Source: a virus (lineage: Duplodnaviria > Heunggongvirae > Uroviricota > Caudoviricetes). From it: 7,777 nucleotides of DNA. The stretch covers positions 1 to 7,777 of IMG/VR virus record IMGVR_UViG_3300000059_000049. One strand, given 5' to 3'. Positions 2,640 through 7,118 of this stretch are shown piece after piece. Below the pieces are notes generated by a model that saw only the letters and a program-made list of their open reading frames with translations, was not told the DNA's origin and searched no databases. Both the position numbers and the translations under genes were made by a program. Each line of letters opens with the position of its first letter. The first letter of the stretch is position 1.

Positions 2640-3635
2640 TCAGTTATTGAACGTGATCACTCCGCGCTCGATGGCGAAGTCGAAAAGCTGGTTAGCGGCT
2701 ACGTAAAGGCGTATGCCATGTGCTTTTTCCCATGCCCGGACATCGTTTTCTGCGCTTCTGGCGCATTCATCGCAAAGAGGAACGGCCCAGCGATCGTGTT
2801 CGTTTAACGAGCGGGCGCGGTACATGAACGGGTGATTAACTTTGCCACCGCATCCGATGCACGGACGAGAAATCACAAACCGGAGATAAGCCGGGCTTTT
2901 ACCGAGAACCGCTTTTGGTCGGCGCATATACAGCAGGCCGGAATCCTCATCTACAGACAGGTTGACGATCTGCTCTGCGGTTATGTCCACCAGCTCACGG
3001 GTGCTGTGCTCCCAGGTGATATCCGATTCTTTCAGTGTGCCGGTAGGGATTTCCTGTTTTGGCTGACAAAATGCAATGCGACCGGCTTCATCTGGCAGCT
3101 CGTCTTTCAGATTCCGGCGAATGGCCCAAAAAGTGAGTTCAACCATGCTCAGATCGCGTTCTGGCGGTAGTTTTAACTCGCTCGCAGCCCAGTTCATAAC
3201 CCAGTTGGCACGATTCAGGGATAACTGGTCGTCCAGCTTGCCGTACCCCTTCATCATGTATTCCGCATCATGCTTCCAGCACAGGCGAACGGCAGAGCCG
3301 TTATAGAAATGAGTGGTTAGCTGGTGGCTGCAATCGCGCTTATCGTGCGCCTGGCAATCGTGGATATTGGAACTTACCCAATGAACAAGCGAATCTTCAC
3401 CGCCCAACGCGTTAAATACGCGCTCGCTTTGAAAAAACGGTTTCAGAGACTGGTTGGCAACCAGCGAATAATTCAGATCCACTACGCCATCTGGCGTGTT
3501 TTCAGCCTGTTCACGCGGAAGTGGAGAGATAATGAAACGGCGACCTGCGCCAATGTAGTTACTGGTGGGCTTGTCTACCGGAAAGACAGCCACACCAGCT
3601 CCGTTTACGAAATGAGGTGTGATTATTGCACTCAT
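2640..3635 (-). CDS. phage protein with C-terminal HNH-like Cys/His zinc-binding cluster (possibly DUF968-type), 331 aa
   Basis: ATG at 3633-3635, first gene after the only intergenic gap. The C-terminal cluster, encoded at roughly 2700-2870, is PCIGCGG...NHPF...NEHDRW...PLCDEC...KAHG (CxxC, H, N/H, CxxC, H), typical of HNH/His-Me finger modules. The large N-terminal region is unassigned. Confidence 0.8.
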   Translation of the reverse strand: MSAIITPHFVNGAGVAVFPVDKPTSNYIGAGRRFIISPLPREQAENTPDGVVDLNYSLVANQSLKPFFQSERVFNALGGEDSLVHWVSSNIHDCQAHDKRDCSHQLTTHFYNGSAVRLCWKHDAEYMMKGYGKLDDQLSLNRANWVMNWAASELKLPPERDLSMVELTFWAIRRNLKDELPDEAGRIAFCQPKQEIPTGTLKESDITWEHSTRELVDITAEQIVNLSVDEDSGLLYMRRPKAVLGKSPAYLRFVISRPCIGCGGKVNHPFMYRARSLNEHDRWAVPLCDECARSAENDVRAWEKAHGIRLYVAANQLFDFAIERGVITFNN

Positions 3636-3739
3636 AATGTATACCGACTCTGTTTTGTTCCGAGCGGTAAAATAATATGTTAGAAAATTAAAATCAATAT
3701 TCTAACATCATTTTGAGTGCATAAACGATGTGTTCAGGA
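3636..3739 (-). promoter_or_regulatory. intergenic region with candidate promoter (TTGATT, ~17 bp, TATTTT on minus strand) for the 3635 gene
   Basis: Only gap over 10 nt in the whole gene block; AT-rich. The minus-strand sequence ...tattgattttaattttctaacatattattttaccg... contains -35-like and -10-like hexamers at plausible spacing, overlapping the inverted repeat at 3677..3708. Predicted by eye only. Confidence 0.3.
3677..3708. promoter_or_regulatory. perfect 9-bp inverted repeat ATGTTAGAA-N14-TTCTAACAT (candidate operator)
   Basis: Read directly: 3677-3685 ATGTTAGAA and 3700-3708 TTCTAACAT are exact reverse complements, separated by 14 nt. It lies between the phosphatase stop (3740) and the start of the next gene (3635). 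Confidence 0.45.
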
Positions 3740-4426
3740 TTACAACTGCCCTCCCTTCACCTGCTTTAGCGTCAGATTCCCGCAAAAAACCGCGCCAGTG
3801 TCTATGTAGTGCTGGTTCCAGAAAGATTTCGGGCTGTTTACTGGCGTATGCCCGAAAATAAAGCTATCTGCACCAGTGATTATTCCACCAACACCATCAA
3901 CCGCGTCATAAAATCGCTCACGCCGCCAGGTAACATTGAGATCGCTAACAGGTTTACCAAACTGGTATTCGTTATCAGGATAGTCGGCATGGGCTATAAC
4001 GATAGTTTCATGCCCGGTGTTCAGCTCAATGATATAGGGCAAACGTCTTACCAGCTCCACCAGCGCCCTGGCTAATATTTCCCGATCAGCGTCCAGCATG
4101 AAGAACCATTGACCACCATTCATTAGCCAGTTATTCACGTTGCCTGCGGGACTTAACGCATCGATCATTAATCGCTCGTGGTTTCCCATAACCGACCGAA
4201 ACCAGGGCATCTGCAATAGCTCCAGGCATTCAACATTTTCGGTGCCGCGATCGATAAGGTCGCCAACCGATATCAGTAAATCCTGTGTAGGGTCAAAATC
4301 CACACGATGGAGTTCATTCATAAGTAGGGTGTAGCAACCGTGCAAATCACCAACAACCCATATGTTTCTGTAGCCTGAACCATCAATACGGCTATATAAA
4401 TTCACTTCATGCAGCACCTGGGTCAT
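3740..4426 (-). CDS. serine/threonine protein phosphatase, lambda PPase (ORF221/NinI) / PrpA-PrpB family, 228 aa
   Basis: ATG at 4424-4426 overlaps the upstream stop (ATGA). Translation carries the calcineurin-like phosphoesterase motifs GDLHG, GDLIDRG, GNHE and, near the C-terminus, GHTP, and aligns along its length with my recollection of lambda phosphatase ([12 protein letters not shown]..., [34 protein letters not shown]). The longer TTG-initiated form from 4456 is rejected. Confidence 0.9.
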
Positions 4427-6255: not shown

Positions 6256-6888
6256 TCACTCTCCTTTGATGCGAATGCCAGGGGCGCGTGGCACATTAAC
6301 TTCCACGATGCGCACAGTTGGTTTGTACATCTCAATTGCTGTCAGCCAGTCAGCTCCTGTCATGCGCTTTTCCGCATCGCCATTAGTCCACTGAACCGGT
6401 ACACCAATAGCCTTCATCGCGATTTCTATTTCCCCGGCAATGGCGCTTTTTCCGCAACCAGTAAAACCAGAAACAACGACAAGAACTTCACCTTTGGCTG
6501 GTTTTATTTCCCGTGCTTCCAGTTCTGCAATACGCTTACTCCCATCCGAGATAACACCTTCGTAATACTCGCGTTGCTCGTTGAGTTTTGATTTTGCTTC
6601 CTCAAGCTCAACACGCAGCTTCCCTACCGTTAGCGCAATATCCTCGTTCTCCTGGTCACGGCGTTTGATGTATTGCTGGTTTCTTTCCCGTTCATCCAGT
6701 AGTGCCAGCACGGTTTCTGGTCCGGCCAGAAATTTGAAGGCGTTGAGCGCATCAATATCCACACCGTAATCTTTAAGTTCCTGTTCACTTATCAGATCAT
6801 CATCAACTGGCAACATTAACAGGCGTTCCATTGCCGGAATTGCACGTTCTGCCGCCTCACGCAGCGCCAGTGTGTCGATATTGCTCAT
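6256..6888 (-). CDS. Ea22-like coiled-coil phage protein with a Walker-A-like GxxGxGKS motif in its C-terminal part, 210 aa
   Basis: ATG at 6886-6888 with GAGGAGG upstream, overlapping the upstream stop (ATGA). N-terminus [16 protein letters not shown]; [13 protein letters not shown] segment shared with 647..1336 (38-nt DNA repeat). [18 protein letters not shown] is encoded at about 6430-6475. The longer form from 6912 is rejected. Confidence 0.75.
6560..6597. repeat. 38-nt segment shared between Ea22-like paralogs (partner at 1023..1060)
   Basis: See partner at 1023..1060; read directly from the sequence. Confidence 0.7.
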
Positions 6889-7118
6889 TGTGCCTCCTCG
6901 ATTTCGTCCCATTCCACCCAGGCATTCTCTCCATCAGCATCGATTTCGCCTTTGTGACCGCATTTGGAACAGACGGCCTCATCACCCGCCCACAAAGAAT
7001 CTTTGGTTACCGACCATCCTGTTACCTTGGCTTTGCCGTGCTGGCACTTAGGGCAATCATCAAGCCATTCGACTTCGACCGTTGACGGACCAAATCCATG
7101 TTCAGTTCGGATGCTCAT
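6885..7118 (-). CDS. small zinc-ribbon protein (two CxxC pairs) with acidic C-terminus, 77 aa
   Basis: ATG at 7116-7118 overlaps the upstream stop (ATGA), AAGGAG 8 nt upstream. DDCPKCQHGKAKV...CSKCGHKGEI gives a CxxC-N26-CxxC zinc-ribbon pattern; ends EWDEIEEAQ. Confidence 0.7.
   Translation of the reverse strand: MSIRTEHGFGPSTVEVEWLDDCPKCQHGKAKVTGWSVTKDSLWAGDEAVCSKCGHKGEIDADGENAWVEWDEIEEAQ

Follow-up and report, generated by a model that had tools for sequence, protein, structure and literature searches.

The window, that is, the whole 7,777-nt stretch of DNA analysed here, is a closely packed array in which all long open reading frames lie on the minus strand. Its sole sizeable non-coding stretch is a gap of 104 nt at 3636–3739, in agreement with the initial annotation, which had described it as the only intergenic gap. 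The gap is flanked on one side by the stop codon of a metallophosphoesterase gene (3740–4426, minus strand) and on the other by the ATG of a DUF968 gene (2640–3635, minus strand); read on the gene strand, it runs ...CACTCAAAATGATGTTAGAATATTGATTTTAATTTTCTAACATATTATTTTACC...ATG. The metallophosphoesterase, which resembles P1 ppp and lambda NinI, is identified by Pfam PF00149 and by the annotation in relatives, and its start at 4426 was adopted from the 228-aa annotation in the E. coli plasmid pEC361_3. The DUF968 gene (Pfam PF06147, E 1e-44) is P1 pdcB-like and HNH-like; relatives label it DUF968 or HNH endonuclease, 'similar to P1 pdcB', and it is the first gene downstream of the operator and promoter proposed below. 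The metallophosphoesterase gene ends 31 nt upstream of an inverted repeat, ATGTTAGAA-N14-TTCTAACAT, which occupies 3677–3708 and is assigned to neither strand. Direct reading of the window gives a left arm ATGTTAGAA at 3677–3685, a spacer AATTAAAATCAATA of 14 nt at 3686–3699, in which 13 of the 14 positions are A or T, and a right arm TTCTAACAT at 3700–3708. The exact 9-bp arms and the 14-bp AT-rich spacer that had been reported are thus present as described, and the repeat can be extended to arms of 13 nt with one mismatch around a 6-nt centre.

Judged by its closest matches, the window is part of a D6-like, P1-family phage-plasmid of E. coli. The gap region is 99% identical to pEC361_3, phage D6 matches at ~92%, and P1, P7, and SJ46 match in parts only. 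The D6 annotation likens the genes on either side of the gap to P1 ppp and P1 pdcB. A 601-nt query (3400–4000) is matched in 91 of 5,426 complete E. coli genomes, nearly always on plasmids of ~90 kb, and the whole window, which is mosaic, touches 961 plasmid records. The exact element of the window is absent from the searched collections, in which the best matches are mosaic and 97–99% identical. The locus had been placed inside a 'prophage block'; based on the pEC361_3 and D6 matches, the element is a plasmid prophage and not an integrated one.

Taken by itself, a perfect 9-bp repeat is within what chance can produce: the window has two perfect inverted repeats with arms of 9 bp or more and a spacer of at most 30 nt, against 0.77 in dinucleotide shuffles (P ~0.2). 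The perfect symmetry is also not the conserved feature. Among 35 homologous gaps, which comprise 33 IMG/VR loci, D6, and the window itself, a perfect 9-bp symmetry is found in one, and typically the perfect core is 7 bp long (GTTAGAA/TTCTAAC). Both the expectation of 0.77 per shuffled window and the restriction of the perfect symmetry to this variant alone are what an AT-rich palindrome formed by chance and devoid of function would present. However, by their scores both arms belong to a motif family with a very strong enrichment in intergenic DNA, the region is better conserved than the neighbouring coding sequence, and the exact geometry of the pair recurs. Chance falls far short of explaining how often the half-site recurs across related genomes, and the chance reading, to which we leave next to no probability, is effectively refuted.

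This recurrence was seen by searching the closest complete relatives, D6 and pEC361_3, for further copies, the check which the initial annotation had proposed for its operator idea, and the outcome is clearly positive. ATGTTAGAA and GTGTTAGAA are found repeatedly between genes. RTGTTAGAA is present in D6 in 12 copies, of which 11 are intergenic against 0.18 expected under a first-order Markov model of intergenic DNA (Poisson 1.6e-16), and D6 coding DNA contains one copy against 1.24 expected. An unbiased screen of the intergenic 8-mers of D6 ranks TGTTAGAA first, with 11 copies observed against 0.39 expected, distributed over 10 different gaps. Alignment of the sites yields an asymmetric consensus of ~18 bp, about RTGTTAGAAAAYTAATTT, and a scan with a 22-nt weight matrix (PWM), whose score distribution is bimodal, returns 17 sites at 16 bits or more in D6 and 21 sites at 14 bits or more in pEC361_3. 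All of these sites lie between annotated genes, and a few overlap a neighbouring stop codon by at least one base.

The D6 sites precede c1, lpa, repL, both icd/ant operons, ref (and, divergently, orf88), and hrdC-dmt; further sites are located before pmgS, before orf117-dut, and in the ppp|pdcB gap. RTGTTAGAA-type sites do not precede the structural operons of D6. Most copies of the motif are single and asymmetric, and the paired copies are always arranged head to head with an offset of 16 nt, which places the 9-mers 14 nt apart. Of such pairs, D6 has two and pEC361_3 has five, the latter located at rdgC, ref|orf88, the focal gap, lpa, and the tRNA|pmgS region. P1 contains neither RTGTTAGAA nor a matrix match in the 90.3 kb scanned. 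In IMG/VR, the exact 20-mer TTGATTTTARTTTTCTAACA is found in the same D6-like contigs and otherwise only in two unrelated AT-rich chance matches, and a literature search for the motif string led to unrelated papers only, among the matches listed.

Under the matrix, the palindrome of the window resolves into two unequal sites. The proximal, strong half-site AATATGTTAGAAAATTAAAATC lies at 3674–3695 on the plus strand, with its core ATGTTAGAA at 3677–3685, and scores 28.6 bits, while the distal, weak half-site ATGATGTTAGAATATTGATTTT lies at 3690–3711 on the minus strand, with its core ATGTTAGAA at 3708–3700, and scores 16.1–16.3 bits. With a matrix that omits the D6 orthologue of this locus, the proximal and distal sites score 26.7 and 16.3 bits, respectively. 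Scores of at least 16 bits occur at 4e-6 per position in an AT-rich null, in which scores of at least 20 bits never occur in 3 Mb; elsewhere in the window no position exceeds 7 bits, and the two sites alone score. The distal site overlaps the proximal one with an offset of 16 nt, and since the AT-rich tails of overlapping sites cannot both be optimal, one half is weaker. Among the relatives, the proximal site ranges over 25.5–30.2 bits, its core being kept (as TTCTAACAT) in 33 of the 35, and the distal site over 4.9–21.5 bits. On this evidence, the palindrome reads as a strong and a weak asymmetric site, each of ~18 bp, arranged head to head. The arrangement is that of a bivalent operator, with inverted, overlapping sites and the hexamers TTGATT and TATTTT within or beside the pair. 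The two-fold symmetry at every site that characterizes operators of the lambda CI/Cro type is not seen, as the halves of the pair differ strongly in score. The dimeric HTH palindrome that had been proposed is accordingly replaced by a family of mostly single, asymmetric sites, in the manner of the P1 C1 operators.

The two hexamers are the −35/−10 pair that had been noticed on the minus strand upstream of the HNH-like gene, and they hold up well. Both were read from the sequence: the candidate −35, TTGATT, occupies 3692–3697 on the minus strand (read 3697–3692), and the candidate −10, TATTTT, follows 17 nt later at 3669–3674 on the same strand (read 3674–3669). TTGATTTTA, which covers the TTGATT region, and ATTATTTTACC, which covers the TATTTT region, are each invariant in 35 of 35 relatives. 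A promoter and terminator scan of 3400–4000 reported no promoter at 9/12 or better and no terminator in the gap; TTGATT-17-TATTTT went unreported because it matches the consensus at only 8 of 12 positions. In the alignment of the 35 relatives, which spans a 700-nt stretch in 737 columns, conservation is highest over the 60 nt that begin with TTGATT and end at the ATG. Their mean column entropy is 0.04–0.07 bits against 0.1–0.5 in the flanking coding sequence, and they require 0.36 parsimony steps per column against 0.49–0.92 in the flanking coding sequence. The proximal half-site, TTGATT, TATTTT, and the leader are all contained in these conserved 60 nt.

A distant element, L044, whose C1 is 44% and whose DUF968 protein is 56% identical, is informative for the promoter. 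Its DUF968 gene is still preceded by TTGATTTTAATTTTCTAACAC, the proximal site is retained, and TTGATT is present, followed 17 nt on by TAGCCT (TAnnnT) in place of TATTTT, so that the layout of the pair is kept. The distal arm is missing from L044, and hence also the hairpin that the two arms could form in RNA. This pattern supports TTGATT-17-TATTTT, which we propose as a candidate sigma-70 promoter of modest strength for the DUF968 gene, one that carries the strong operator core in its spacer; transcription would start at ~3662. An alternative promoter with one hexamer in each arm, as in P1 Oban, namely TTAGAA-17-TAACAT, is less likely because L044 lacks the distal arm yet keeps TTGATT-17-TAnnnT. 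At the ref|orf88 site, TTGATT stands at a different place with respect to the operator core, and thus no uniform register of promoter and operator exists, which counts against the operator reading. A late promoter of the Lpa-dependent P1 type was also considered. Extraction and alignment of six annotated P1 late promoters define a 9-bp palindromic −22 box, AAGTGACTT, located 4 bp upstream of the −10 hexamer. The pattern AAGTGACTT-N4-(−10) does not fit the gap, from which the box is missing, and D6 has a single intergenic copy of the box elsewhere. Separately, ACTTCACAC/AAGTGTGA is present several times in the long gap upstream of DUF968 in L044 (345–670); no other intergenic 8-mer of the L044 locus is repeated as often (4 gaps), and it is possibly a regulatory motif of L044's own.

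The hairpin itself is the basis of a rival explanation, in which the repeat acts in RNA as a weak intrinsic terminator or attenuator between the phosphatase and DUF968 genes and any protein binding is incidental. Its predicted stability on the gene strand, −10 kcal/mol (z = −4.7), its position shortly after a stop codon, and the AUUAUUUUA that follows it would agree with such a role. However, the stem contains only two G-C pairs and is followed by a U-rich tail that is interrupted, which departs from an intrinsic (Rho-independent) terminator, and the terminator scan is silent. The hairpin of D6 is weaker (−7.3 kcal/mol), the bivalent site at hrdC has no U tract, and the motif mostly occurs as single sites, from which no hairpin can form. 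Moreover, the hairpin is gone in L044 while the proximal site is kept, which argues against the RNA hairpin as the selected feature and leaves the attenuator, offered initially as the alternative to an operator, as a weak proposal. We therefore regard termination as an improbable primary function of the repeat; a minor terminator effect in read-through transcripts may occur. A search of Rfam 15 produced sub-threshold chance matches only, namely tsr32 at 22 bits (gathering 98) and isrK at 16 bits (gathering 50).

A further RNA structure is predicted over a longer stretch. The fold of 3725–3630 has −24.6 kcal/mol (z = −4.2), and in it positions 3709–3718 pair with 3630–3639 on the minus strand, such that an ACUCA/AAUG stretch just upstream of the distal arm is joined to CAUU/UGAGU at the DUF968 start codon. 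Based on this predicted pairing, read-through transcripts could mask the DUF968 start, and transcripts from the internal promoter would not.

Returning to protein binding, the repeat probably serves the C1-type master repressor of the D6-like (P1-family) plasmid prophage as a bivalent operator. The identity of the regulated genes and the analogy with P1 point to C1 as the binder. The c1 gene lies outside the window, and the evidence on the repressor comes from close relatives: D6 orf1 and the 'phage repressor protein' of pEC361_3 are C1 homologues of 345 aa that are 21% identical to P1 C1 (BLASTP E 2e-8), and C1 homologues related to the D6 type carry Pfam PF27008, Phage_P7_repressor_C1. A search of solved structures found none matching P1 C1. 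P1 C1 reportedly binds as a monomer. The P1 record annotates the C1 operators Oc1, Olpa, Oref, Omat, Odmt, Oban, and OpmgRa/b, and the D6 sites at c1, lpa, ref, dmt, and pmgS match Oc1, Olpa, Oref, Odmt, and OpmgR, respectively. For the D6 repL and icd/ant (immI) sites, we take the P1 counterparts to be Op53 and Op51. The components of a P1-family C1 operator set are thus found together, including a repressor of the C1 family, dispersed asymmetric sites, and the promoters of the C1 regulon, among which the repL and ant/icd counterparts are the presumed ones.

P1 carries 22 dispersed asymmetric 17-bp C1 operators with the consensus ATTGCTCTAATAAATTT (PMC8546580). The D6-type sites resemble these P1/P7 operators in that they are numerous, dispersed, asymmetric, and ~17–18 bp long, with a specific 5′ block and an AT-rich tail. 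As in P1, they are placed before c1, lpa, ref, the dmt operon, and the pmgR/pmgS region, and repL and ant also have D6 sites. Further likenesses to P1/P7 are the head-to-head overlapping pairs, some of which span a promoter, and the repressors, both of which belong to PF27008. Unlike P1/P7, the D6-type recognition sequence is RTGTTAGAAAAYTAATTT rather than ATTGCTCTAATAAATTT, and neither phage has the motif of the other; the D6-type repressor, for which binding is predicted, has 345 aa and is only 21% identical to P1 C1. The P1-type C1 operator core is not found in the gap or in any intergenic region of D6. Since P1 lacks the D6 motif and the intergenic DNA of D6 lacks P1-type operators, the two motifs go with two types of repressor. 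The site does not match the consensus ATTGCTCTAATAAATTT that defines P1 immunity specificity, and it would thus be an operator of a different, D6-type specificity within the same type of system.

Within the D6 group, elements whose C1 shares only 44–51% identity with D6 C1 keep the same motif, and motif and repressor therefore do not visibly co-vary. This constancy would also suit a more conserved binder, and a rival explanation accepts the motif family as real and assigns it to another regulator encoded by the element or by the host, such as Lpa, an Lxc/Bof-like cofactor, or another DNA-binding protein of the early region. However, sites are placed before c1, lpa, repL, icd/ant, and ref, all of them controlled by C1 in P1, and not before the structural operons. 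The late operons are instead marked by another motif, AAATCACA, which fits a late-promoter role, and the P1 late box has no match in the gap. The presence of AAATCACA at late operons, together with the failure of the P1 late box to fit the gap, argues against a late activator as the binder. A regulator other than C1 is accordingly judged unlikely.

The late motif was encountered as the second enriched motif in the intergenic DNA of D6. It reads TGTGATTT on the plus strand of the record and AAATCACA on the gene strand, and has 12 intergenic copies against 0.53 expected. Copies of AAATCACA lie ahead of the late operons prt, ddrB, R, pmgB, 23, 7, and mat at a distance of 45–60 nt, with a −10-like hexamer after them; examples of TGTGATTT are found at positions 25234, 27740, 38128, 45504, 54137, 67406, and 72113 of the D6 record. 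The motif is missing, in either form, from the gap of the window. Probably, AAATCACA is the D6 counterpart of the Lpa-dependent late promoter of P1, with a different box sequence.

For the C1 operator, the nearest structural parallels are the bivalent operators of P1. Oban(ab) and Oc1(ab) each consist of two inverted 17-mers with an overlap of 6 bp, and the Oban pair spans the −35 to the −10 of P1ban. Measured between outer edges, the D6-type pair is 32 bp with an overlap of ~4 bp, in comparison with 28 bp and 6 bp for P1 Oban. A positional parallel is provided by OpmgRa/PpmgR/OpmgRb of P1 (formerly Op86a,b), an inverted pair of C1 operators at an internal promoter that lies right after ppp(-pmgQ) in the same long operon, which is the relative position of the site in the window. 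Unlike the latter, OpmgRa and OpmgRb are 32 bp apart, do not overlap, and flank the promoter instead of covering it, and the downstream genes are pmgR/pmgS in P1 and the DUF968 gene in the window. The site in the window resembles the lambdoid CI/Cro operators in being an inverted repeat over a promoter that would serve lysogenic repression. The lambdoid operators, each of them a dimer-bound palindrome, are gathered at two loci; unlike these, the D6-type sites are mostly single, asymmetric, and scattered over ~90 kb.

The proposed mechanism follows from this arrangement. In the lysogen, C1 would occupy the strong proximal site and, helped by it, the weak distal site. One C1 molecule would bind per half-site, as in P1, and binding would be cooperative. 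The bound pair would cover the −35 and the spacer of the internal promoter and thereby occlude it. When C1 is inactivated, the internal promoter, whose activity is predicted from sequence, would fire. Upon induction, the long early/accessory operon would start at the C1-controlled divergent ref|orf88 promoter, ~1 kb past the right end of the window, and the internal promoter would then boost DUF968 and the following genes inside this operon. The initial annotation had suggested that the promoter keeps distal genes expressed during lysogeny; contrary to this, if a repressor operator overlies the promoter, the genes are expected to be silent in the lysogen and to be expressed once it is induced.

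The mechanism most likely repeats what P1 already shows, the site being an ordinary phage switch element that differs in sequence. Its value lies in a concrete operator consensus, RTGTTAGAAAAYTAATTT, in a map of the regulon for the D6-group elements, which are common ~90-kb phage-plasmids of E. coli and relatives, and in placing the DUF968 accessory genes under predicted lysogenic repression. Both could be used for predicting immunity groups and for annotating D6-like plasmids. The deposited D6 record has no operators annotated; the D6 consensus may already have been published in the D6 genome paper.

Adjacent to the conserved 60 nt, the outer edge of the distal arm (3707–3710, operator positions −1 to 2, without strand) is hypervariable. 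The alignment of 35 relatives contains 18 variants of these four positions, 1-nt indels among them, and the column entropy at the edge reaches 1.82 bits, the highest of the 737 columns. On a neighbour-joining tree that was built without the hypervariable columns, the columns of 3710, 3709, and 3708 require 10, 9, and 8 parsimony steps, respectively, which are the top three of the 737 (mean 0.76) and correspond to at least 8–10 independent changes. The perfect 9-bp palindrome of the window is one of these outer-edge variants. As a result of this variation, the predicted strength of the distal site spans the wide range given above, while that of the proximal site stays within its narrow one.

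We advance tentatively, and as an unlikely reading, the idea that the weak half of the bivalent operator is an evolutionary tuning point. If so, each lineage would have reset the silencing of the DUF968 accessory operon in its lysogen with the promoter untouched. The hypervariable edge could reflect recurrent selection or a mutational hotspot caused by the bound repressor or by the palindrome. Quasi-palindrome template switching and gene conversion between operator copies were each considered as the cause of the hypervariable triplet and were rejected, as the observed variants are not those predicted by either. The outer 2–4 nt of one arm are also hypervariable at ref|orf88 (L160–L187, ~70 nt before the ref ATG) and at the bivalent operator of lpa (L189–L219, ~110 nt before the ATG), so that three bivalent operators have a hypervariable arm edge; at the focal site, the other arm and the promoter are frozen. 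At the hrdC operator, the variation is in the centre and not at the outer edge.

The remainder of the window provides observations on the operon itself. The segment 4731–7384 is ~95% identical to modules of phiV10, O157 typing phages, and Stx phages, which are unrelated temperate phages, and the genes in these shared modules include Ea22-like, DUF4752, and eae-like ones. Since the segment is common to unrelated temperate phages, the early/accessory operon is a mosaic that exchanges with lambdoid and other prophages. Additionally, three ead/Ea22-like paralogues (647–1336, 1323–1781, and 6256–6912) have similar N-terminal segments, with (S)(E/K)INYQ(A/E)LREAA in two of them and a related 10-residue segment in the third. 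Two of the paralogues have in common a central block, ...KSKLNEQRE(H/Y)YEGVI(V/S)DG(G/S)KRIAELE..., and these similarities suggest a shuffling of modules inside the window.
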